DNA of 64,000 nt. It comes from a virus. The number at the start of each line of letters is the position of its first letter. Within the stretch, counting starts at the first letter, position 1. The notes beneath the pieces were generated by a model. The model was not told the origin of the DNA. It did no database searches and was given only the letters and a program-made list of their open reading frames with translations. The stretch covers positions 9,026-73,025 of IMG/VR virus record IMGVR_UViG_3300016667_000188; one strand, given 5' to 3'. The position numbers and the translations under genes were made by a program. Positions 3,116-61,232 of the stretch are shown piece after piece.

Positions 3116-3943
3116 ATGACAATGCTAAGAGTACAACCACTAGCCAATGTTAAGTACAAAGCTAAGTTTTATAAATTGGATGCAAATTCATTCAAAATTG
3201 ATCTGTCACTGGTAACTGGTGATGTTGACTGGGCTCCTATTGAGGGTGAAAAAGACCCAGAAGTTAAAACCCTAATTAGTACAGTGGTAGATAGCCGTGA
3301 GTATACAAAAACTGATTTTCCACTGCCAACCAGAGCACATCAGTTATACACTATTTTGCAAAAAGATGGTAAACTAACTGATATTATTGCTGTGTATGAT
3401 GTCACTCAAACAAGAAAAGAGAGTATCCCACAAAGAGAACACTCTGTTAGAAACGAGAATAATACTGTTGTTATGGGTATTTACAGCTGTGATCCAATTA
3501 ATGATGTTGATGTATTTAGCGATAATACTGTAATCGCTTTTTCAGACAGCATAGACGAGCCTTCTTTAGTTTCTGAATATGATGCTTCTTTATCTGAGGT
3601 GCTCGATACACCTATTATGAAGACTAGTGATGAGCAATACAGCCAATCCTTTATGGCTACTTATCCTAAAGTAACTATCACTTCTGCTGATACTGTTCAG
3701 GCTGGACAACCACTAGTTGTTACAGTTTCTATGGAAAAGGTTGTGAACAAATCCAATAAAATTGAAGTGTTTCTATACAATTCAATGGGTGTTTCGAATA
3801 AACAAAGAATATCTTTGGCAGATGGTGAATCTAGTGAGATCACTATTAACACTGAAGGATTGGTTGCTGGTGAAGAAATTATCTTCAAAGTCAATTTCTA
3901 TAACTACACAAGTTTTGCTAAGAAAACTATCGCCGTTGTATAA
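3116..3943 (+). CDS. hypothetical protein
   Basis: 275-aa ORF with an AGGAGA RBS immediately upstream. No motif recognised. Confidence 0.5.
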   Translation: MTMLRVQPLANVKYKAKFYKLDANSFKIDLSLVTGDVDWAPIEGEKDPEVKTLISTVVDSREYTKTDFPLPTRAHQLYTILQKDGKLTDIIAVYDVTQTRKESIPQREHSVRNENNTVVMGIYSCDPINDVDVFSDNTVIAFSDSIDEPSLVSEYDASLSEVLDTPIMKTSDEQYSQSFMATYPKVTITSADTVQAGQPLVVTVSMEKVVNKSNKIEVFLYNSMGVSNKQRISLADGESSEITINTEGLVAGEEIIFKVNFYNYTSFAKKTIAVV

Positions 3944-40484: not shown

Positions 40485-40505
40485 TACCCTACTGCAAGTA
40501 GGGTA
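40485..40505 (+). terminator. PeSL-like stem-loop TACCCTACT-gca-AGTAGGGTA abutting the -35 box
   Basis: 9-bp perfect stem preceded by cttt. Part of the AAAGTATTAC-leader cassette. Confidence 0.6.
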
Positions 40506-40533
40506 TTGACTTTTCGACAGATTGATGTATAAT
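40506..40533 (+). promoter_or_regulatory. early promoter TTGACT-N16-TATAAT
   Basis: ttgacttttcgacagattgatgtataat. Confidence 0.7.
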
Positions 40534-40559
40534 AAAGTCCTGTCGGAAAGGAGTTTGAA

Positions 40560-40763
40560 ATGGCTGAGATCAAAATGGGTACGGTCTACCGAGTAGACAT
40601 TATCGAATCTGAGCGTGGTTGGGGTCAGAAAATCGAAGATCAAAAGTTCTTCGATAACTATGATGAAGCTGCAAAGTATATCGAAAGATACAATGCAGAT
40701 CTTCCAGCTGGTCCTGCTCCCGACTGGTATATGATGGCTCGTGGTCCTTACAGAGTGAGTTGA
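40560..40763 (+). CDS. hypothetical protein
   Basis: 67-aa ORF with GGAG RBS. First gene of the early unit. Confidence 0.45.
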   Translation: MAEIKMGTVYRVDIIESERGWGQKIEDQKFFDNYDEAAKYIERYNADLPAGPAPDWYMMARGPYRVS

Positions 40764-40764
40764 T

Positions 40765-41070
40765 ATGAAAAAACTTTTTGTTATGATGTTGGTTATTGCA
40801 ATGTCTTCTGCTGTCTATGCTAAAGGTGGTGGCGGCGGTGGCGGTGGTCATGGAGGCGGTGGCGGACACGCTAGTTCTTCTGGTCACTCCAGTTCTTCTA
40901 GCCATGCTAGTTCTTCTGGTGGTGGTAAGGGCACATCGAGTGGTAAGAGTGCATCTGTTGCACCTGAGCCTAGTCGTTCCAATACTTCAAGTAGTTGGTT
41001 CCCTTGGTTTGGTGGAGGTGGATCTAAAGGATCTTCTGAAGAAAAGTGTAAGAAAGAAAAAACCTGTTAA
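40765..41070 (+). CDS. secreted Gly/Ser/His-rich small protein (signal peptide MKKLFVMMLVIAMSSAVYA)
   Basis: N-terminal signal peptide followed by G8HG5H...SSS low-complexity sequence and a C-terminal CKKEKTC. Confidence 0.5.
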   Translation: MKKLFVMMLVIAMSSAVYAKGGGGGGGGHGGGGGHASSSGHSSSSSHASSSGGGKGTSSGKSASVAPEPSRSNTSSSWFPWFGGGGSKGSSEEKCKKEKTC

Positions 41071-41130
41071 GGTTTTCCTATATAAAAAACAGGACAGGTA
41101 GTCTGTCCTACTGATTCTAAGGAGTTTAGA

Positions 41131-42105
41131 ATGAAAACTGGTATCTTCATTGGGCGTTTCCAGCCCGTACATCACGGTCACATCCATGCACTCGGAGTGG
41201 CTGCATCCCAAGTAAATAAACTTTACATCCTCGTAGGCTCGGCTAACGCATGCCGAAGTATTAAGAATCCTTGGACTTTTGATGAGCGTAAGCAGATGCT
41301 GGCTCTCAAACTGCATGCCGAGAGAATCACAAACTACGAAATTATTCCACTCAACGACTATCGTTACAGCGATACGCAATGGATGTCTGACGTCCGTGCC
41401 ACTATCGAACACTACAACATGGGCTCACCGATTCTGTTCGGTCACATCAAAGAAGGTAATGATTACCTGAAGTGGTTCCCTGAATTAAAATTTAAGAGCA
41501 TTGAGGCTCAATATAATATCGATGCAACTCACATTCGTGAGGAGATGTTTAAGAATGACGACCCTCTGATGCCAGAAACTGTCCGAGGCGACTATGCTTT
41601 CTACCAAAAAGAAAAACAACTCTTCAAAGATTATCCATTCCCCGAAACTCTCAACTTCAATTGCTCTGATGCGATCCTCGAATGCCAAGGACATGTGCTT
41701 CTCATCCAACGCAAGTTCAGTCCAGGTCGAGGTGCTTGGGCACTTCCAGGAGGTTTTCGCAACCAGCGTGAAACATTTCTTGACTGTGCCATCCGAGAGT
41801 TGATTGAAGAAACTAACGTGCGAGTCCCTGAGAAAGTTCTCCGTGGCTCTATCGTGAAAACCGAATTGTTCGACAGTCCTCGTCGTTCGTTCGGTATTCC
41901 CCGAAACACCATGGCTGTGTACATGCGTATTAGTCCGAATCCTGACTACTCGCTGCCTCGTGCTAATGGTGCTGACGATGCTGCTCTGTGCAAGTGGGTG
42001 CCACTTACTGACGCACTGAACAACATCGAGATGTATGATGACCACAAGGACATCATTTCTAAAGTAACAGGTGTTATGTCAATGCCTGCATTTGCAAAAC
42101 TGTAA
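41131..42105 (+). CDS. natV: bifunctional NMN adenylyltransferase / Nudix hydrolase (NadM-Nudix, KVP40 NatV-like)
   Basis: N-terminal GRFQPVHHGH nucleotidyltransferase motif. C-terminal Nudix box GGFRNQRETFLDCAIRELIEETNV. Confidence 0.8.
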   Translation: MKTGIFIGRFQPVHHGHIHALGVAASQVNKLYILVGSANACRSIKNPWTFDERKQMLALKLHAERITNYEIIPLNDYRYSDTQWMSDVRATIEHYNMGSPILFGHIKEGNDYLKWFPELKFKSIEAQYNIDATHIREEMFKNDDPLMPETVRGDYAFYQKEKQLFKDYPFPETLNFNCSDAILECQGHVLLIQRKFSPGRGAWALPGGFRNQRETFLDCAIRELIEETNVRVPEKVLRGSIVKTELFDSPRRSFGIPRNTMAVYMRISPNPDYSLPRANGADDAALCKWVPLTDALNNIEMYDDHKDIISKVTGVMSMPAFAKL

Positions 42106-42121
42106 ACGATTAGGATCGTGT

Positions 42122-42415
42122 ATGAACGAACGAATTCAAGAACTTGCTCGTCAGTCTGGTGCATATCATAAAGATGACGACGGTGAAGAAACTAAGATTG
42201 CTGTTCTAATAGGTAAGGAAGTAGAAAAGTTCGCCGAGTTGATTGTTCGGGAATGTATGGAACTTAATAGAAAACAATCCTGGGATCTTACTGGTGTGAT
42301 TATTGATGTTGAAGAAAGCACTGGTTTTGACGAAGTGTGTATGAATACTGTAAAACGAGTAAAGAATTATCTAGCAGGCGATGACTTGCTAAAACATTTT
42401 GGAGTTGAAGAATGA
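42122..42415 (+). CDS. small protein, MNERIxELA/EKFAELIVREC family member A
   Basis: Paralogous to 43003, 43203, 43540 and 43999. Ends in HFGVEE. Confidence 0.5.
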   Translation: MNERIQELARQSGAYHKDDDGEETKIAVLIGKEVEKFAELIVRECMELNRKQSWDLTGVIIDVEESTGFDEVCMNTVKRVKNYLAGDDLLKHFGVEE

Positions 42416-42609
42416 TTTTGAAGTATTTTAGAGAACAAATTGAAGGTGGTGCTACAGATAACTTTTTCTATGGCACTGAAATGAATGGTGAAGTTCGCAT
42501 TGAGCGTCATCGTGGTAGTCTTGACTCATTCCCCACTGATCTAAAATTTACGAGAATGGTAGGAAGTGTTCCGTTCTTTACTCAAGAACATTTCGGAGTT
42601 GAAGAATGA
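42412..42609 (+). CDS. small protein ending in EHFGVEE
   Basis: 65 aa. The body is unrelated to the family, but it shares the junction cassette. Confidence 0.4.
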   Translation: MILKYFREQIEGGATDNFFYGTEMNGEVRIERHRGSLDSFPTDLKFTRMVGSVPFFTQEHFGVEE

Positions 42610-42833
42610 ACGCTAAAAGAGGTCTACCCCTGGAAAGCATTGCGACAGACCCTGTAAGAATGCGAGCGAGATGTGAAGCATTGGTAATTGCTATGGTAGG
42701 CAAAGATATGGCTGAGAAATGGTGGAATGGCCCAAACAAGGCATTTTGTGATGACACACCAGAACAGATTTATAGTGTAGCACCCAGTGCGGTGTATGCT
42801 TATCTAATGCGATCAGCCGAAGGAGAATGGTAA
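42606..42833 (+). CDS. DUF2384-like (ParS/MbcA/Xre-type RES-toxin antitoxin C-terminal domain) orphan protein
   Basis: AEKWWNGPNKAFCDDTPEQIYSVAPSAVYAYLMRSAEGEW fits the A..WL..PN.AL.G.TP......G...V...L.R...G signature. Recognised from memory, with no search run. Confidence 0.45.
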   Translation: MNAKRGLPLESIATDPVRMRARCEALVIAMVGKDMAEKWWNGPNKAFCDDTPEQIYSVAPSAVYAYLMRSAEGEW

Positions 42834-43006
42834 TGAACCAACGTAAAGTTCACTACATTGATGTGAGCAAAATGTCCGAAAAAGAACTATGTGAAACATT
42901 GAACATTCCATATGTTCCGTGGTATTGTGATAGTATCTTTTGGGCATTGGCACTGGTTTTTACTGCGCCCAGTATCCTGATTATTACTTTGGAGATATTC
43001 AAATGA
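42833..43006 (+). CDS. small protein with hydrophobic C-terminus (57 aa)
   Basis: TAATG overlap upstream and ATGA overlap downstream. Confidence 0.35.
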   Translation: MNQRKVHYIDVSKMSEKELCETLNIPYVPWYCDSIFWALALVFTAPSILIITLEIFK

Positions 43007-43206
43007 ACAAACGAATTAAAGAACTGCAGTTTCAAGCTGCCGCACAAGTTAATCCGTTGTTGGAAGGTTCTGAGTGGCAACAAGTGTTTGTTGAGAATTT
43101 TGCCGAGTTGATTATCAAAGAAACACTACAGGTTGCTCGTGCTGGTATAGAGTTCGGCGACGGTATGGAAGATGCTGTTTACAAATATTTCGGAGTTGAA
43201 GAATGA
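43003..43206 (+). CDS. MNKRIKEL/FAELIIKE family member B (67 aa)
   Basis: Family motifs. Ends in YFGVEE. Confidence 0.45.
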   Translation: MNKRIKELQFQAAAQVNPLLEGSEWQQVFVENFAELIIKETLQVARAGIEFGDGMEDAVYKYFGVEE

Positions 43207-43448
43207 ACGAACGAATTAGAGAACTTGCTAGAGAGGCTGGGTTGCCTACATACAACCCCGAAGGTATTCCAACTAAATTAGAAAAGTTCGCCGAGTTGAT
43301 TGTTAGGGAATGTATTCGCATTGGCCAAGAAACCAGCAAAGATATTTTCAAAATGTCAAAGAAAGAAGGTGACATTTTTGAATATGAATCACACGGTGCA
43401 GAACAAGTAGTTGATAATATCAAAGAGCATTTTGGAGTTGAAAAATGA
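43203..43448 (+). CDS. MNERIRELA family member C (81 aa)
   Basis: MNERIRELAREAG..EKFAELIVRECI..EHFGVEK. Confidence 0.5.
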   Translation: MNERIRELAREAGLPTYNPEGIPTKLEKFAELIVRECIRIGQETSKDIFKMSKKEGDIFEYESHGAEQVVDNIKEHFGVEK

Positions 43449-43543
43449 GCATAAGCGAAACTATCGTCATACTTGCTATGATTTCACTGTTTGCCTTGGT
43501 TGCAGTGGGTGTATATAAGTTGATTGTAAAAGGTTTTCTATGA
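43445..43543 (+). CDS. 32-aa single-TM peptide (MSISETIVILAMISLFALVAVGVYKLIVKGFL)
   Basis: ATGA overlaps at both ends. Entirely hydrophobic. Confidence 0.35.
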   Translation: MSISETIVILAMISLFALVAVGVYKLIVKGFL

Positions 43544-43767
43544 ACGAACGAATTAAAGAACTTGCCCAACAGGCTGGATGCAGTATTGATGGAATGGGCT
43601 ATGGCGAAGGTAATGTAGAAAAGTTCGCCGAGTTGATTATTCGGGAATGTATTGGTTGTTGTGAACAAGTTATCAGTGATCCTGTTCCTGAATCCGTGGA
43701 TAGTTGGTTAAATGGTGGCGAACAATGTATCCAAGAGATTAAACAGCATTTTGGAGTTGAAAAATGA
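43540..43767 (+). CDS. MNERIKELA family member D (75 aa)
   Basis: MNERIKELAQQAG..EKFAELIIRECI..QHFGVEK. Confidence 0.5.
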   Translation: MNERIKELAQQAGCSIDGMGYGEGNVEKFAELIIRECIGCCEQVISDPVPESVDSWLNGGEQCIQEIKQHFGVEK

Positions 43768-44015
43768 AAGTTTCCAATCTACGCAAAATCACAGACCCAA
43801 CTACATTTGAACCAAGTGTAGTAGTAGATGTAGAAATCCCAAGAATGACCTTATACGAACTAACTCTAATGAAAGAGGACATTCGTAAAGACATTATCTA
43901 CACACTCGGAGCGGAGTTATTGGGACAGATTGTTGTTCAGATGGGTATGACTGATGAACAAAAGAAAGACCTAATCAAGGACTTGCTGGGAGTGAACAAT
44001 GACACCGAATCCTAA
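43764..44015 (+). CDS. hypothetical protein (83 aa)
   Basis: ORF coupled by ATGA. Confidence 0.4.
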   Translation: MKVSNLRKITDPTTFEPSVVVDVEIPRMTLYELTLMKEDIRKDIIYTLGAELLGQIVVQMGMTDEQKKDLIKDLLGVNNDTES

Positions 44016-44223
44016 AATCCGAGAACTCATTATGAGTATGGGCATTATTCCTGAAAGCGAACACTATGATATCGCTGAACGAGTTATTGAAGAATGTATG
44101 GCAATGTGTAAAACCGCTGTAGGCAACGCTGACTACAACACTGGCAGACTACATTGTTTAGAAAACATCAAAGAACACTTTGGAGTTAAACGATGGCACT
44201 TCGACAACTGCAAAGGTGCTTGA
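43999..44223 (+). CDS. family member E (IRELI..ERVIEECM..EHFGVKRWHFDNCKGA) with read-through of a degenerate junction
   Basis: The junction is mutated to GGAGTTAAACGATGG, so the usual stop is lost. Confidence 0.45.
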   Translation: MTPNPKIRELIMSMGIIPESEHYDIAERVIEECMAMCKTAVGNADYNTGRLHCLENIKEHFGVKRWHFDNCKGA

Positions 44224-44248
44224 CTTTTATTCAATAGTCAGGTATAAT
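44220..44248 (+). promoter_or_regulatory. early promoter TTGACT-N17-TATAAT upstream of the NAMPT gene
   Basis: ttgacttttattcaatagtcaggtataat. Confidence 0.65.
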
Positions 44249-44292
44249 TAACTTACTCCGAGACGGTCTTGGGGAATTTTTAGGAGCTAAAA

Positions 44293-45687
44293 ATGAGCAT
44301 TTCAAAATCAATCATTCTAAACACCGACAGCTATAAAGTTAGCATGTTCAAACAGTATCCTGCAGGTACGACTGGTGTTTATTCCTATATTGAATCACGT
44401 GGTGGACGCTATGATCGCACTGTGATGTTCGGTCTCCAAGCCTTCATTAAGGAGTATCTACTTGATCCAATTACCCAAGCCGACATTGATATTGCTGATG
44501 AGATACTCACTACTCACGGAGAACCCTTCAACCGAGAAGGATGGGAATATATCCTACGTGTCCACGATGGTTATCTCCCAGTCGTTATTCGTGCAGTTCC
44601 TGAGGGTACAGTGGTTCCTGTTAAAAATGTTTTGGCTACAATTGAAAACACGGATCCTGAATGCTATTGGTTGACTACTTATCTGGAAACTGCTCTTCTG
44701 CGTGCAGTCTGGTATCCAACCACTGTGGCTACTCAAAGCTACACCATTCGCAAAGTGATCATCGAATATCTGGAGAAAACTGGTGACCCTAGCCTTATTG
44801 ATTTCAAACTGCACGACTTCGGTGCTCGTGGCGTTTCTTCTATGGAAAGCGCAGGAATTGGCGGTGCTGCCCACTTGGTTAACTTCATGGGTACTGATAC
44901 CATCACTGGTCTTCTGTATGCTCGTGAGTATTACAATGCTGGTATTGCTGCTTTCTCTATCCCTGCCGCAGAACACAGTACCATCACCAGCTGGGGTCGT
45001 GACAACGAAGTAAAAGCCTATGACAACATGCTTACTCAGTTTGCTAAGCCTGGTAGTATCGTTGCAGTGGTCAGCGATAGCTATGATATCTTCAACGCTG
45101 CATCTAAACTCTGGGGTGAAGAACTCAAGCAGAAAGTTATTGATAGTGGCGCTACTATTGTCATCCGTCCAGACTCTGGCGATCCTGATACTGTTTGCCG
45201 TAAACTTGTAGAAATTCTCGGTCAAAAGTTCGGTTACACTACTAACGACAAAGGATACAAGGTTCTGAACAACGTCCGCATTATCCAAGGTGACGGTGTG
45301 AATGAACAAACTATCCGCACTATCCTTGGTGGCTTTGCTGCTTACGGTTGGTCTGCTGACAACATTGCTTTCGGTATGGGTGGTGCTCTACTGCAACAAG
45401 TCGATCGTGACACTCAGAAGTTCGCAATGAAGTGTTCTGCTGCTCTGATCAACGGTGAGTGGGTGGATGTGCAAAAAGATCCTGTCACTGACGCTGGTAA
45501 GAAGTCTAAAGCAGGTCGTGTGCAACTTTGGGAAAGTGGTGGTGAGTTTATCTCTTCTGTCACTCGTCCTAATACTTGGACTGATCGTGGCTTTGCATGG
45601 GCTCCAGCGTTGCAAGAAGTGTTCCGTGACGGTAAACTTGTAACCGAGTACACCTTCGAGCAAGTCCGAGCCAACGCCAAAAAGTAA
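44293..45687 (+). CDS. nadV: nicotinamide phosphoribosyltransferase (NAMPT, KVP40 NadV-like)
   Basis: 464 aa with a NAMPT-like length and composition (e.g. GTDTITGL, FGMGGALLQ segments). Paired with the NMNAT-Nudix gene. Confidence 0.75.
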   Translation: MSISKSIILNTDSYKVSMFKQYPAGTTGVYSYIESRGGRYDRTVMFGLQAFIKEYLLDPITQADIDIADEILTTHGEPFNREGWEYILRVHDGYLPVVIRAVPEGTVVPVKNVLATIENTDPECYWLTTYLETALLRAVWYPTTVATQSYTIRKVIIEYLEKTGDPSLIDFKLHDFGARGVSSMESAGIGGAAHLVNFMGTDTITGLLYAREYYNAGIAAFSIPAAEHSTITSWGRDNEVKAYDNMLTQFAKPGSIVAVVSDSYDIFNAASKLWGEELKQKVIDSGATIVIRPDSGDPDTVCRKLVEILGQKFGYTTNDKGYKVLNNVRIIQGDGVNEQTIRTILGGFAAYGWSADNIAFGMGGALLQQVDRDTQKFAMKCSAALINGEWVDVQKDPVTDAGKKSKAGRVQLWESGGEFISSVTRPNTWTDRGFAWAPALQEVFRDGKLVTEYTFEQVRANAKK

Positions 45688-45707
45688 TACCTTAGGCTTA
45701 CAAAAAG

Positions 45708-45733
45708 AAACCCCACCGAGTGTGGGGTTTTTC
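45708..45733 (+). terminator. rho-independent terminator AAACCCCAC-cgagt-GTGGGGTTT plus U-run
   Basis: Seen directly. Preceded by the AAAAGTAATACCTTAGG leader. Confidence 0.8.
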
Positions 45734-45743
45734 AACTTAGGGG

Positions 45744-45772
45744 TTGTCTTTTTACAAAACCTGATGTATAAT
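45744..45772 (+). promoter_or_regulatory. early promoter TTGTCT-N17-TATAAT (TGATGTATAATA core)
   Basis: Seen directly. Confidence 0.6.
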
Positions 45773-45795
45773 ACTTCTATTGAATCGGAGAATTT

Positions 45796-45963
45796 ATGTG
45801 GAGTGATTTTAGTGACTACGAACTAGCCGAACTGGCTGGTCGCTATGGGTTGGAAGACAACCTAGTTTTTGATTATGAACTCAGTCTTGCAAATCGTGAC
45901 GAGATTGAGAAACTGTTGACTGAATTTGAATGGGAGATTGCAAATGCAGAACGTAGCATCTGA
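45796..45963 (+). CDS. small acidic ORF (55 aa)
   Basis: GGAG RBS. Overlaps the VWA gene start by 20 nt. Confidence 0.3.
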   Translation: MWSDFSDYELAELAGRYGLEDNLVFDYELSLANRDEIEKLLTEFEWEIANAERSI

Positions 45964-48133
45964 TCTTAGCGCACGACTGTTGGCAACAGAAAATCTTTCT
46001 GTTGTTCGTGCCAAAGCGATTACTGCATCTTTCGATATCAAGTCACGTGTGTTGACTCTGCCACTGTGGAAAGATATGACTCCCGAGATCGAAGACATGC
46101 TCATCGGTCACGAAGTCGGTCACGCACTCTACACTGGCGTAGAGTATATGACTCCGATTATGGAAAATCCTAAGCTGAAGTCTTATATGAACGTGTTGGA
46201 AGACGTTCGTATCGAAAAGCTGATGAAGCGCAAGTATCCTGGAATTCGTAAGCGTATGAACGAAGGATACAAACAACTCAATGAGCGTGACTTTTTTGGC
46301 GTCAAAGCCATTCAAGACTTCAATGAATTGCTGCTGATTGACCGCATCAACCTGTACTTCAAAGTTGGTTTTGAATGTGGTGTTAAATTCACACCAGAGG
46401 AAAAGGCGTTTGTCAATCGTGCAGAACGCACTGAGACTATGGAAGAAATTATCCAGCTGGCTCAGGACATCTACGCCTACTCCAAAGAACAAGCTGAAGA
46501 ACGTCGTAAGCAACGTATGGAAGCTGGTGAAGATGTTGAAGAAGGCGATGACTTGGATGACCCAATCACTGGCGACTTTGACATTGATGACTTTGATGAT
46601 TTTGATGAAGACGAAGATGCTAGTGACGATAAGCTAAAATCTTCTAAGTCTGGCTCCAACAAAGAAAATGATGATGCTGCTTCTGACGACCAAGAGGAAG
46701 ACCTAGAGGCGAAGACTGATCGTGTTTTCCAGAAACGTCTGGAAGAATTGGCTGACGATTCTACAGAGTATCTGTACTGGAAGTTTGACACTAACTATTT
46801 CGAAGATCCTGTTGTTGGTTACAAAACCATCCTGAAAGAAACTAAGTCTGTGCATGAGTGGAATGCAGATCTGTATCAAGCGAACGACTACAAGACTCGC
46901 TATATGGACGAAGCGCAACGCAAGGAATTCTTTGGCACGTTCACTAAAGAATTCGATCAATTCAAAACCGATTCTATGCGCACGGTAAACTACCTTGTCA
47001 AAGAATTCGAGATGAAAAAGTCTGCACAACTTTACAAACGTGCTCAGGTTGCCAAAGTTGGCACTCTGGATATGCGTAAGGTTTGGGCTTACAAACTTCA
47101 GGAAGACTTGTTCAAGCGTGTGACTACCTTGCCGCAAGGTAAGAATCACGGTATGGTTATGCTGCTGGACTGGTCTGGTTCTATGGACAACGTGTTGCAG
47201 GACACTCTCAAGCAGGTGATCAACCTTGCTATGTTCTGCCAGCGTATCCAAGTGCCATATCGTGTCTATGCATTTACTACTGACTATAATAAAGATCTTT
47301 CTTATGAAGAACGTGTAGAACGTGATCGTAAGATTCGTGAGTACCGTGCAAAGTTTGGTGAGCAGAAAGATCTGCTGAGCAACACCCGAGGTTTCCATAT
47401 GCTGGAATTCTTCAACAACAAGATGTCTTCTGTGGAATTCAACGAGATGGCTCGTCGTCTGTTGGACTATCGTTTCCGTTGGAATGATGGTTACAGCACC
47501 AGTGGCACTCCGTTGAATGAGGCACTGGCATGGTGCTATCTCAATCTTGGTGACTTCATCAAGAAGCACAATCTGGAGAAGACTACATTCATCACTCTTA
47601 CTGATGGTGAAGGTGGTCAGTTGTCTGGTGATGGTCGTCGCCTAGATCCTGTCCGCAACGAATACGTTGATGGTAAGTATGTGCGCACCAAATTGCGCCA
47701 CTTTGTTCGTGACGATGTTACTAAGAAAACCTATGAGTTGGAAAATAACTCTGCGCAACAGACTGAAGCGATTCTGCGAATGATCAAAGATCGCCACGAT
47801 GTTCGCACTGTTGGTTTCTATATCTGCCGTAACCATCGTCGTGACCTTCAGTCTGTTATCGGTGCAAACCTTCCAGGTTATACTGGTAGTTCTGAAGTGC
47901 TGATTGAGAATTGGCGTAAACAATTCCGTGATCAAGACTTTGCTTCTGTGAAGAATACTGGTCGTGATGAATTGTTCCTGATCCCTCAATCTTCTACGAA
48001 GATCCAAGAGGGTGAACTTGAGGTCAAGTCTGATGCAAAAGCTGCTAGTATTGCTCGCAACTTTAGCAAATACTTGAATGTCAAGAAGACTTCTCGGGTG
48101 CTGCTGAATCGTTTTGTGGCTCTCGTAGCCTAA
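45944..48133 (+). CDS. von Willebrand factor A domain protein with N-terminal HExxH motif and acidic linker (CobT-like partner of the MoxR ATPase)
   Basis: HEVGH near residue 70. Asp-rich linker (DDLDDPITGDFDIDDFDDFDEDEDASDD). MIDAS motif VMLLDWSGSMD. Confidence 0.65.
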   Translation: MQNVASDLSARLLATENLSVVRAKAITASFDIKSRVLTLPLWKDMTPEIEDMLIGHEVGHALYTGVEYMTPIMENPKLKSYMNVLEDVRIEKLMKRKYPGIRKRMNEGYKQLNERDFFGVKAIQDFNELLLIDRINLYFKVGFECGVKFTPEEKAFVNRAERTETMEEIIQLAQDIYAYSKEQAEERRKQRMEAGEDVEEGDDLDDPITGDFDIDDFDDFDEDEDASDDKLKSSKSGSNKENDDAASDDQEEDLEAKTDRVFQKRLEELADDSTEYLYWKFDTNYFEDPVVGYKTILKETKSVHEWNADLYQANDYKTRYMDEAQRKEFFGTFTKEFDQFKTDSMRTVNYLVKEFEMKKSAQLYKRAQVAKVGTLDMRKVWAYKLQEDLFKRVTTLPQGKNHGMVMLLDWSGSMDNVLQDTLKQVINLAMFCQRIQVPYRVYAFTTDYNKDLSYEERVERDRKIREYRAKFGEQKDLLSNTRGFHMLEFFNNKMSSVEFNEMARRLLDYRFRWNDGYSTSGTPLNEALAWCYLNLGDFIKKHNLEKTTFITLTDGEGGQLSGDGRRLDPVRNEYVDGKYVRTKLRHFVRDDVTKKTYELENNSAQQTEAILRMIKDRHDVRTVGFYICRNHRRDLQSVIGANLPGYTGSSEVLIENWRKQFRDQDFASVKNTGRDELFLIPQSSTKIQEGELEVKSDAKAASIARNFSKYLNVKKTSRVLLNRFVALVA

Positions 48134-60686: not shown

Positions 60687-61232
60687 ATGGATTACGAAGA
60701 ATTTCAAAAGCGCATGGCTGAAAAGTACCCTCGTTATTTTGGCGAGGGTAAACGCTATGGTGGGTTTGCTATTGGTGAAGGATGGTATCCTATCATTGAA
60801 GCACTAGTGGGTCAAATTGACCACTACACTAAGTGGAAGCGCAGCACTCGTGCGTATCAGCTGCGTTTAGATCGTGCACGTGACAAAGGTCGTGATGCGG
60901 TTCTGAAGTTTATCTGCAAAGGTAGAGAGCCGAAGTACTTCGATGAAGAACGTGCCGATGATATTATGGCGACACCGCATGAGATTATTCCTGCTGTTCC
61001 TTGGATCACTGTTCAGCAAATCAAAGAAAAATTCGGTGGTTTGCGTTTTTACTATGATGGTGGTGATGAACACATCTCTGGTATGGTCACTATGGCAGAG
61101 TCTTGGGCACATCGCACGTGTGAAGTCTGCGGTAACAAAGGCAAACAACGTGAAGGTGGGTGGATTCGTACTCTTTGTGATGAACACGAAGCTGAACGCC
61201 AAGCAAAGATGAAGGAGAGATTCGATGAGTAA
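60687..61232 (+). CDS. hypothetical protein with C-terminal Cys/His cluster (CEVCGN...LCDEHE)
   Basis: 181 aa. Possible zinc ribbon. Confidence 0.45.
   Translation: MDYEEFQKRMAEKYPRYFGEGKRYGGFAIGEGWYPIIEALVGQIDHYTKWKRSTRAYQLRLDRARDKGRDAVLKFICKGREPKYFDEERADDIMATPHEIIPAVPWITVQQIKEKFGGLRFYYDGGDEHISGMVTMAESWAHRTCEVCGNKGKQREGGWIRTLCDEHEAERQAKMKERFDE

Follow-up and report, generated by a model that had tools for sequence, protein, structure and literature searches.

A repeated 21-nt gene junction of freshwater phages is mainly the 3' end of a small-protein family and an apparent point of gene exchange

Does a short sequence that recurs at the boundaries of small phage genes represent the shared end of a protein family, a device to start the next gene, or a point at which phages exchange genes? 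This question is raised by ten small genes at positions 42122-44223 of the window, i.e. the whole stretch of 64,000 nt of viral DNA analysed here (IMG/VR record IMGVR_UViG_3300016667_000188). These genes form a promoter-free, fully overlapping array, in which the sequence-only reading had counted six copies of a 21-nt junction and interpreted them as a module for recombination and translational coupling used to shuffle small genes. We found that the 21-mer chiefly represents the 3' terminus of a previously undescribed family of three-helix proteins, MNERI…EKFAELIVRECI…HFGVEE, while sequence comparisons among related phage genomes show genes apparently swapped exactly at this junction. The features of the array are given below, where the tail-less HMM is a profile of the family built without its C-terminal tail, and L numbers denote related loci.

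42122-42415, plus strand: family gene 1, 97 aa, MNERIQ…HFGVEE; tail-less HMM E = 2e-18; repeat families D2 and D4; N block at about 42121-42159, middle block at about 42217-42259
42395-42415, plus strand: junction copy 1, CATTTTGGAGTTGAAGAATGA
42412-42609, plus strand: cargo cassette, 65 aa, core GGATDNFFYGTE…VRIERHRG…PFF with a putatively grafted EHFGVEE tail; no match to the family HMM
42589-42609, plus strand: junction copy 2, CATTTCGGAGTTGAAGAATGA
42606-42833, plus strand: cargo ORF, 75 aa (MNAKRG…), opened by the junction 2 ATG; overlaps the following ORF as TAATG; no family assignment
42833-43006, plus strand: cargo ORF, 57 aa, including a hydrophobic stretch; immediately 5' of the 75-aa family gene in L121-L126
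43003-43206, plus strand: family gene 2, 67 aa, MNKRIK…YFGVEE; HMM E = 1.1e-14
43186-43206, plus strand: junction copy 3, TATTTCGGAGTTGAAGAATGA, one mismatch; directly followed by the N block of family gene 3; repeat family D3
43203-43448, plus strand: family gene 3, 81 aa, MNERIR…HFGVEK; HMM E = 3.6e-19
43428-43448, plus strand: junction copy 4, CATTTTGGAGTTGAAAAATGA
43445-43543, plus strand: cargo ORF, 32 aa, hydrophobic, starting at junction 4; ATGA overlap with the next gene
43540-43767, plus strand: family gene 4, 75 aa, MNERIK…HFGVEK; HMM E = 2.4e-21; more than 1,100 homologues
43747-43767, plus strand: junction copy 5, CATTTTGGAGTTGAAAAATGA; its orthologue in L121-L126 coincides exactly with a mosaic breakpoint
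43764-44015, plus strand: cargo ORF, 83 aa, MKVSNL…LLGVNNDTES
43989-44002, plus strand: junction-like, frame-shifted seventh site, GGAGTGAACAATGA, joining the 83-aa ORF to the ORF starting at 43999
43999-44223, plus strand: divergent family-like gene, 74 aa, …PKIRELI…IAERVIEECM…IKEHFGVKR…; motifs visible, no HMM match at 1e-3
44176-44196, plus strand: decayed junction copy 6, CACTTTGGAGTTAAACGATGG, four mismatches
44220-44274, plus strand: sigma-70-like promoter TTGACT-17-TATAAT with a stem-loop, closing the coupled array and preceding a NAMPT gene

A scan of 40500-46000 revealed no sigma-70-like -35/-10 promoter at any junction copy, strong sites being present only at 40506 and 44220, and no terminator-like site overlaps any junction. 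Scans of all ten small ORFs against Pfam and PHROGs gave nothing below E = 0.01. Regarding the surroundings, the window carries a metallophosphatase ORF and an SMC/AAA-type ATPase ORF, read as gp47/gp46-like, which represent T4-type general recombination functions together with UvsW, also encoded in the window. Genes for NAD+ salvage neighbour the array, and the cargo carried in such arrays includes Tad3.

Searching the window with the pattern CAYTTYGGAGTTGAARAATGA returned five copies (one with TAT for CAY) compared to 0.01 expected; shuffled sequence gave a mean of 0.01 matches, and five copies were reached in none of 100 shuffles. Four matches are free of mismatches (42395, 42589, 43428, 43747) and the one at 43186 has a single mismatch, TAT for CAY, resulting in the tail YFGVEE; all copies are on the plus strand. 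The layout described from the letters alone holds at all five good copies: the final codons (H/Y)FGVE(E/K) are followed by TGA, GGAG is situated 7 nt 5' of an ATG that overlaps with the stop codon as ATGA, and this ATG opens the next ORF. Accordingly, all 21 bases belong to the upstream ORF and the last four are shared with the downstream ORF. The total of six copies was likewise confirmed, since the five good ones are joined by the decayed copy at 44176-44196, which was absent from a search allowing up to three mismatches because it has four. Its ORF (43999-44223) runs nine codons beyond the expected stop position (WHFDNCKGA*). At the junction-like site 43989-44002, which the sequence-only reading did not include, the spacer is 1 nt shorter, and therefore the upstream ORF reads five more codons. 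GGAG at 7-nt spacing is absent from the other true ATGA overlaps of the window; hence, the junction is not simply the usual gene boundary of this phage, and we rejected that explanation. The motif TTGGAGATATT(C)AAATGA, seen at 43003 and 60441, was considered as another type of junction and dismissed; it is found 5' of the start at 60687 as well and resembles a ribosome-binding site of the common, favoured kind.

The protein family to which the 21-mer mainly belongs is built from an N block (MNERIKELA), a first variable segment, the middle block, a second variable segment and a C block (IK.HFGVEE). The tail-less HMM matched the window ORFs starting at 42122, 43003, 43203 and 43540 (E 1e-14 to 2e-21), while at the 1e-3 threshold it did not match the ORFs 42412-42609 and 43999-44223. 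The family comprises more than 1,100 clusters at 90% identity and at least 6,189 representatives at 50% identity (E <= 1e-3); among the best 150 representatives, xFG[VIL] with 0-3 further residues forms the end of 129, and 97 begin with MNERI. It was found almost only in freshwater viral contigs. The exact junction pattern is present in at least 120 IMG/VR contigs, and genome contigs with it number only 19 (almost exclusively lake MAGs), compared to about 2 expected by chance. Neither tblastn of the 75-aa family protein against 50,697 GenBank phage records nor megablast of 41100-45700 against GenBank phages gave a match, so that no annotated relative is at hand, and a full-text literature search for "HFGVE" found nothing related. 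In an AlphaFold2 model the 75-aa protein is predicted to form three helices (pLDDT 74), with H and F at the end of helix 3 and GVEE as an unstructured stub beyond it. The best Foldseek hit of this model in the PDB had an E-value of 1.5; therefore, the fold is uninformative on function.

Such a large family invites the plain explanation that the repeat is just the C-terminus of tandemly duplicated paralogues, with GGAG and ATGA being incidental and without any role in gene exchange. Paralogy alone can indeed account for five of the six window copies, as four of the six upstream ORFs clearly belong to the family and another is a divergent member, and among the 120 listed loci approximately 90% of the HFGVE-terminated ORFs are family members, the 21-mer being their C-terminal block. 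Furthermore, tail residues are exchanged conservatively (V to I, E to K), and H and F lie at the end of helix 3 in the model. Nevertheless, we regard this explanation as rather unlikely, because the junction shows hardly any synonymous change in genes whose adjacent codons vary freely, because homology between relatives halts exactly at junctions, because the junction lies 5' of unrelated downstream genes, which form at least 166 clusters, and because the tail is also found on the unrelated 65-aa family, whose other members lack it.

The conservation of the DNA was assessed in an unbiased sample of 80 family genes, which were fetched via the peptide patterns CCEQVIS and MN[EK]RI.. and not via the junction DNA. 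The tail is present in 75 of these 80 genes, and its Gly codon is GGA in 75/75 cases against a background of 22%; Val is encoded by GTT in 63/75 and His by CAT in 66/69. The exact 21-mer occurs in 44/80, and the next start is overlapped in 68/75 (60 times as ATGA or GTGA, eight times as TAATG). Among copies that were not picked by the pattern, but lie within pattern-selected loci, GGA was found in 96/105 (p = 7e-51). The preferred Gly codon is GGT, yet the junction Gly is fixed as GGA. Rare codons dominate the N and middle blocks too, namely CGA (86% vs. 13% background), GCC (83% vs. 20%), GAG (85% vs. 26%) and TTG (80% vs. 26%). In one subfamily, synonymous variation was observed at 21 of 28 codons of variable segment 2 compared to 2 of 13 block codons (Fisher p = 5e-4). 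The synonymous sites are hence conserved far beyond the requirement of the protein, which upholds the earlier claim that more than protein-level conservation is involved. However, the GGA bias cannot be credited to ribosome binding alone, given that synonymous sites are just as conserved in the N and middle blocks; moreover, GGA is retained in 15 of 17 copies without an overlapping start.

The 65-aa ORF at 42412-42609 represents a separate family with 111 homologues, many alternative tails and most members ending differently, which substantiates the earlier statement that the junction also occurs on a protein unrelated to the MNERI family. At least ten other tails were found among these homologues, including the truncated forms GVEE, VEE and EE, which keep the GGAG…ATGA part and lose HF. 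Homology of this cassette to L149-L152 is confined to 42393-42610, i.e. from junction 1 to junction 2, a finding that contradicts the possibility, named beforehand, of a single duplicated gene family without cassette exchange. About ten apparently unrelated ORFs elsewhere bear a HFGVEE-type tail; thus, the tail is portable. The tail of the 83-aa ORF is a second portable 3' module, which elsewhere is fused to the MNERI family and to the 65-aa family.

Portability could also mean that (K/E)HFGVEE is a functional C-terminal motif for interaction or degradation, which was spread by selection and owes its DNA identity to recent transfer. Its presence on at least two protein families in addition to the apparently unrelated ORFs and its very strong conservation among representatives at 50% identity or less would fit such a peptide tag. 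On the other hand, the homologues of the 65-aa protein do well with their other tails including those without HF, the Gly codon is fixed as GGA despite the preference for GGT, GVEE is predicted to be unstructured after helix 3, and the synonymous freezing in the N and middle blocks is inexplicable by a tag. We therefore consider a peptide tag unlikely.

Direct evidence for exchange at the junction comes from alignments of related loci. Up to …GAAGAATGA, L121 shares 99.6-100% identity with L122, L124 and L125; beyond it, the sequences are unrelated. The converse pattern is seen at position 3687. The window segment 42833-43025 matches L121 3831-4023 at 92%. In total, 30 locus pairs share the upstream gene and differ in an unrelated downstream gene, and the converse was found for 15 pairs. 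The 32-aa cargo ORF also follows a junction in L127, L128 and L129. The relative L127, which is 98-98.9% identical, displays homology that starts at 42214 within the middle block of family gene 1 and ends inside copy 6 after CACTTTGGAGT; at the corresponding position HFGVE* is intact in L127, and a permuted tmRNA comes next (found by Rfam and missed by ARAGORN). Together with the nine-codon readthrough, this end of homology corroborates the view of copy 6 as a mutated, fossil junction. Moreover, L127 contains an extra 63-aa cassette inserted exactly at the junction-like site 43989-44002, which is the kind of cassette presence/absence between relatives that the sequence-only reading had expected from a shuffling locus.

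Exchange is, however, not restricted to the junction. The N and middle blocks match it in DNA-level conservation and serve as crossover points to the same extent; intragenic crossovers were found exactly at AAGTTCGCCGAGTTGATTGT and hybrid proteins are seen, for example variable segment 1 of family gene 3 joined to variable segment 2 of family gene 4 in other phages. Homology end-points fall within 12 nt of a family block in 30 of 106 unique cases compared to 2.9% expected, whereby it must be considered that the events from metagenome contigs are partly non-independent and that the baseline of 2.9% is not the rate at other gene boundaries. Phage gene boundaries are in general enriched for breakpoints. 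At one breakpoint, L125 at 2763, the junction is present on one partner only; hence, not every event is homology-driven. Regarding the proposed shuffling module, exchange exactly at the junction was found, whereas its stand-alone nature has to be given up, since the 21-mer is the C block of a large family.

As all comparative data stem from metagenome assemblies, chimeric joins at repeats had to be considered, a concern already raised with the first reading of the repeats. This is most improbable, and we rejected it because the alternative arrangements of the L121 type recur in several independent samples, assemblies and assemblers; furthermore, the stretches of 21-45 nt identity are shorter than the final assembly k-mers (contigs named k141), and the ORFs are all intact across the joins.

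A dedicated site-specific system, in which the 21-mer serves as attachment site of a specialised recombinase, is suggested by cassettes that are flanked on both sides by the same short sequence and by promoter-free arrays with all genes in one direction, features that resemble the arrays of promoter-less small cassettes in integrons (attC, IntI). Yet, no stable RNA fold is shared by the five copies when folded with 30 nt on each side (z-scores -1.8 to +1.0), their pairing potential being limited to weak AU-rich stretches of 5-6 bp (CAUUU/AAAUG); a stable hairpin or an imperfect palindrome of the attC type is thus missing at the junction. The Rfam scan of the window gave no match. No integrase domain was present among the precomputed Pfam hits of neighbour genes in the listed loci, which belong to quite different phage types, or in the ten scanned window ORFs. 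In addition, crossovers are as frequent in the N and middle blocks inside genes, and the window encodes its own general recombination functions of T4 type. We rejected the integron-like mechanism on structure and intragenic breakpoints and regard it as very unlikely. Instead, the data point to homology-driven and not site-specific recombination: since the N and middle blocks are equally used, general homologous recombination is assumed rather than a junction-specific mechanism, and the whole looks like ordinary homologous recombination and not like a dedicated cassette system.

We therefore favour as the probable explanation that the 21-mer is the 3' coding block of a large protein family, whose three blocks serve as homology anchors and whose downstream ORF is translationally coupled. 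The first six bases, CAYTTY, encode the end of the last helix, and the remaining bases GGAGTTGAARAATGA contain a Shine-Dalgarno-like GGAG, the 7-nt spacer and the ATG overlapping with TGA. By this spacing and overlap the downstream ORF appears to be placed for coupled translation, such that ribosomes finishing a family gene would be set up to translate whichever ORF lies downstream. GGAG as a genuine Shine-Dalgarno site and the coupling itself are putative and deduced from the arrangement of these letters; Bacteroidota, which are among the candidate hosts, make little use of Shine-Dalgarno sites. As the three blocks are near-identical in DNA across many different freshwater phages, they presumably serve general homologous recombination as short anchors. 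A crossover in the C block would exchange or insert the downstream gene and occasionally graft the HFGVEE tail on unrelated genes such as the 65-aa ORF at 42412, while crossovers in the N and middle blocks would mix the two variable segments anew, yielding chimeric proteins. The ten-gene array would be a product of such block crossovers. The enzymatic route would presumably be homologous recombination, and any selective benefit is likewise presumptive.

Several known systems resemble parts of this arrangement. The promoter-early stem-loops (PeSLs) of T4-type phages combine a sigma-70 promoter with a terminator stem-loop (Arbiol et al., 2010, PMC2839356; Comeau et al., 2014, PMC4122927). Like the junction, they are short, recur next to small non-essential genes within variable regions of T4-like genomes, supply expression signals of the downstream gene and act as homologous exchange points between otherwise unrelated sequences in close relatives, leading to insertions, deletions and replacements. 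However, PeSLs are intergenic and transcriptional, whereas the junction is intragenic, carries translation signals without a promoter or stable stem-loop, and belongs to a protein family with two further anchors. Separate PeSL-like motifs are present in the window at 40487-40535, 44220-44274 and 45706-45772. In the T-even adhesin gp38, conserved glycine-rich motifs separate hypervariable segments (Trojet et al., 2011, PMC3157838; Tétart et al., 1998, cited there). There as well, conserved coding motifs form a structural core between variable segments, and recombination in or near them gives rise to chimeric proteins; but gp38 is another protein family, and in our case the 3' anchor bridges into the next gene, so that whole downstream genes are shuffled, too. 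Linker or boundary sequences are said to be part of the modular theory of phage evolution as put forward by Susskind and Botstein in 1978, and Clark and co-workers reportedly described short conserved boundary sequences in lambdoid phages in 2001. These short boundary homologies were likewise proposed as crossover points that make mosaic genomes; here, in contrast, a defined 21-mer with a coding and a putative translational role occurs hundreds of times in uncultured freshwater phages with exact breakpoints documented. Translationally coupled genes that overlap as ATGA, with the Shine-Dalgarno site in the preceding gene, are known from trpB-trpA and many T4 early genes. They have the same geometry of GGAG, a spacer of about 7 nt and ATG overlapping TGA, but their sequence is ordinarily specific for the pair, whereas here one sequence precedes all the unrelated downstream clusters.

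Homologous recombination at short conserved sequences is an already known principle. Short linker homologies at the borders of modules are an old assumption of the modular theory, but well-defined examples are few, mainly the PeSLs, the gp38 motifs and the lambdoid boundary sequences. The present locus adds a precise 21-mer with two sister anchors, found in hundreds of uncultured freshwater phage contigs with mosaic breakpoints resolved to the base, and this 21-mer joins the roles of protein C-terminus, putative ribosome-binding site with overlapping start and recombination anchor. It also brings to light a very large family of small proteins without a name in any database. The anchors are usable as PCR or search handles to list the accessory genes of such arrays, among which a Thoeris inhibitor was found, and the arrangement represents a natural design for promoter-free coupled cassette arrays. 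More tentatively, the anchors may be maintained because they recombine, i.e. as a homology-based plug-and-play system of freshwater phages, which would reassort the two hypervariable segments of the family and offer a universal 3' adaptor by which any small ORF could enter a translationally coupled early operon and pass between unrelated phages. The reassortment would diversify a small binding protein, which, as a guess from the NAD+ salvage neighbours and the Tad3 cargo, may be directed at host defence. If this possible reading were true, the system would be the counterpart of PeSLs at the level of translation and a recombinase-free counterpart of integrons.

The 21-nt junction (CAYTTYGGAGTTGAARAATGA) matches the window without mismatch at 42395, 42589, 43428 and 43747 and with one mismatch at 43186 (TAT for CAY), with all copies on the + strand; shuffled sequence gave 0.01 matches on average. 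Each good copy encodes (H/Y)FGVE(E/K) and a stop, and carries GGAG 7 nt 5' of an ATG; this ATG, which shares bases with the TGA, is the start of the next ORF. GGAG at this spacing is absent from the remaining true ATGA overlaps of the window. The sixth copy (44176-44196, CACTTTGGAGTTAAACGATGG) has four mismatches and its ORF extends nine codons further, i.e. both the six-copy junction and the nine-codon read-through described in the sequence-only reading were recovered. An additional junction-like site, frame-shifted, lies at 43989-44002 (GGAGTGAACAATGA). The whole array (42122-44223) consists of ten small ORFs in gapless packing, joined by seven ATGA overlaps, one TAATG and one 17-nt overlap, and no promoter-like site within it scored above 9 of 12. 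TTGGAGATATT, found at window positions 42989, 60428 and 60676 just 5' of three start codons (two within ATGA overlaps), is probably the favoured ribosome-binding site of this phage rather than a second shuffling junction.

Four paralogous ORFs (starts 42122, 43003, 43203 and 43540) share the layout MNERIKELA, variable segment 1, EKFAELIVRECI, variable segment 2 and IK.HFGVEE, with E-values of 1e-14 to 2e-21 against a profile made without the tail; the ORF at 43999 looks like a divergent fifth member of this MNERI family of small phage proteins. The family is very large and unannotated. A search with one member gave more than 1,100 clusters at 90% identity, and the family profile search gave 6,189 representatives at 50% identity; of the best 150 of these, 129 have the ending xFG[VIL] plus 0-3 residues, and 97 have the MNERI start. 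Pfam, PHROGs and tblastn searches of the family, the latter against 50,697 GenBank phage records, matched nothing, and the AlphaFold2 model (three helices, pLDDT 74) gave no match in a PDB fold search. At least 120 IMG/VR contigs contain the exact 21-mer; among 185,579 species genomes it was found in only 19 contigs, nearly all lake MAGs, with approximately 2 expected by chance. The junction 21-mer belongs to uncultured freshwater phages.

For the codon analysis, 80 family genes were gathered by the peptide patterns CCEQVIS and MN[EK]RI.., with junction DNA not used in the choice. The tail is present in 75 of these 80 genes, the exact 21-mer in 44 of the 80, and 68 of the 75 tail-bearing genes overlap the next start. 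The Gly codon of the tail is GGA in 75/75 cases (background 22% GGA, preferred codon GGT), GTT encodes Val in 63/75 and CAT encodes His in 66/69. A Shine-Dalgarno role is compatible with the GGA bias but cannot be taken as its only cause. Freezing is equally strong in the N and middle blocks, which keep rare codons (CGA 86% vs 13% background, GCC 83% vs 20%, GAG 85% vs 26%, TTG 80% vs 26%). At codons of invariant residues, synonymous variation was found in 21/28 cases in variable segment 2 versus 2/13 block codons (p = 5e-4), as compared within one subfamily whose members have variable segment 2 in common. Since the junction codons and the N and middle blocks are frozen and variable segment 2 changes freely at synonymous positions, conservation of the N, middle and C blocks is at the DNA level, beyond protein.

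Metagenome contigs of different samples with the same 75-aa gene (the 43540 ORF) are 99.6-100% identical until …CATTTTGGAGTTGAAGAATGA and unrelated directly after. Downstream of the junction, L121, L123 and L126 carry an FkbM-type methyltransferase gene, and in L122, L124 and L125 this slot holds a Tad3-family Thoeris inhibitor; the reverse pattern is seen at a second junction (3687).

L122 4225-4725 (also L124, L125): Tad3-family Thoeris inhibitor, PF25185, E = 9e-36, directly behind the junction

Thirty locus pairs have a common upstream gene and unrelated downstream genes, 15 have a common downstream gene behind different family genes, and 30/106 unique homology end-points lie 12 nt or less from a family block (expected 2.9%). 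An overlapping downstream ORF follows 293 junction-type sites; in 86 cases it is another family member, and the remaining 207 ORFs form 166 clusters; Pfam-matched cargo includes ribonucleotide reductase, PsiE, an OmpA-like protein, HNH endonuclease and Tad3. A mosaic breakpoint in L125 (~2740-2770) has the HFGVE junction in one partner only, the other sharing only AATAATGA; therefore, some exchanges at such gene starts need little or no homology.

The ORF at 42412-42609 belongs to a separate family (core GGATDNFFYGTE…VRIERHRG…PFF), and most of its 111 homologues lack the HFGVE ending; these end in LDTYDEQGGEQGWAER, VEE, KPAGVEE, KQK, a 35-residue extension or a MSVEDKKQLIKDLLGV… tail, which occurs also fused to MNERI-family genes. 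The window's copy is 88% identical to loci L149-L152 over 42393-42610 only, a span bounded precisely by junctions 1 and 2, with unrelated flanks. Hence, the junction-bounded cassette predicted earlier exists. The junction is indeed carried by a gene of an unrelated family. Read-through fusions across the junction were seen in P0083, P0137, P0185, P0270, P0295, P0334, P0368 and P0010-type homologues, in which the partner of the family gene is a Zn-ribbon module (…CPKC…), an …AFKDGVDLSG(K/R)ETP module, the MSVEDKKQLIKDLLGV module or a second family gene; these three modules are also fused to the unrelated 65-aa family. Crossovers are found inside genes as well. L149 and L151 have variable segment 2 and the C block in common and differ in the N block and variable segment 1, L149 and L152 have the N block and variable segment 1 in common and differ in the rest, and both switch points are exactly AAGTTCGCCGAGTTGATTGT. 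Moreover, database proteins have variable segment 1 from the 81-aa gene (43203 in the window) joined to variable segment 2 from the 75-aa gene, and in the alignment one constant variable segment 2 is linked to dozens of unrelated variable segments 1.

Single-cassette presence/absence among relatives, proposed earlier as a check, was found in L127, a 98%-identical relative whose homology begins at 42214 (middle block of gene 1). One additional 63-aa cassette is inserted in L127 precisely at the position of the junction-like site 43989-44002. The homology stops within the sixth junction, after CACTTTGGAGT, where L127 has an intact HFGVE* and then a permuted tmRNA.

L127 4857-5036: permuted tmRNA gene, RF04321, 61.6 bits, truncated at the contig end, directly after the intact sixth junction

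ARAGORN did not detect this tmRNA in L127, and at the corresponding position of the window lie a promoter and NAMPT. The sixth copy had been called a fossil junction; it is altered as claimed, but because the L127 homology ends inside it and the L127 copy is intact, it is a recombination scar at the operon end. Coupling is not needed there, since the gene after it is served by a promoter and a ribosome-binding site of its own.

No stable RNA or DNA structure was found at the junction, no Rfam family matched the window, no promoter or terminator was found at any junction copy, and no integrase was seen among the neighbouring genes that were inspected. Alternatives based on structure, promoter/terminator or integrase were set aside on these grounds. 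The 21-mer (43428-43448 and other copies) forms a weak inverted repeat, CAUUU(U)…(A)AAAUG, with GGAG in the loop and AUG in the stem, too weak for folding to call a hairpin; the preference of CAT over CAC in 93-96% of junction copies would fit this pairing. The best reading of the junction is a composite element. CAYTTY encodes the end of the predicted helix 3, and GGAGTTGAARAATGA would supply ribosome-binding site, spacer and overlapping stop/start. The junction and the N and middle blocks jointly offer 20-45 nt of near-identity usable by general phage recombination, and gene replacement, cassette insertion/deletion, tail grafting onto foreign genes and chimeric proteins would be the outcomes. 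We infer that the junction couples translation of adjacent genes and that the arrangement may be of adaptive value.

The phage is a T4-like myovirus. The window encodes UvsW, the gp44 clamp loader, and metallophosphatase and SMC/AAA-type ATPase ORFs, which we read as gp47- and gp46-like nuclease subunits; a cyanophage 'peptidase' is 35% identical to a 735-aa window protein. The array is flanked by NMNAT/Nudix and NAMPT genes and closed by a sigma-70-like promoter plus stem-loop (44220-44274).

40487-40535, 44220-44274, 45706-45772: three motifs like the promoter-early stem-loop (PeSL), each a GC-rich stem-loop beside a near-consensus sigma-70 promoter
40765-41070: 101-aa ORF, N-terminal hydrophobic segment, then long Gly, Ser and His runs (GGGGGGGGHGGGGGHASSSGHSSSSSH…)
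41131-42105: NMNAT/Nudix bifunctional gene, PF01467 + PF00293
44293-45687: NAMPT gene, PF18127 + PF04095

The PeSL-like motifs, with promoters of TTGACT/TTGTCT, 16-17 nt and TATAAT, then a Shine-Dalgarno site and start codon, appear to delimit early transcription units around the array. The 101-aa ORF looks like a secreted low-complexity protein. The small-gene array splits the phage NAD+ salvage pair. Such NMNAT/Nudix and NAMPT-type pairs are reported to counter NAD+-depleting defence systems; therefore, the array may sit in an anti-defence neighbourhood.

The junction works like PeSL of T4-type phages, because in both a shared expression signal doubles as recombination point (PMC2839356, PMC4122927). 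However, the junction has neither promoter nor stem-loop, and its position is not intergenic, which places it outside the definition of a PeSL. The family blocks, which separate variable segments and carry crossovers, have a second parallel in gp38, whose glycine-rich motifs lie between hypervariable segments and are sites of crossover (PMC3157838). What deserves attention is how precisely the breakpoints are placed, that a single 21-mer has three roles, and how large the still unnamed family is.
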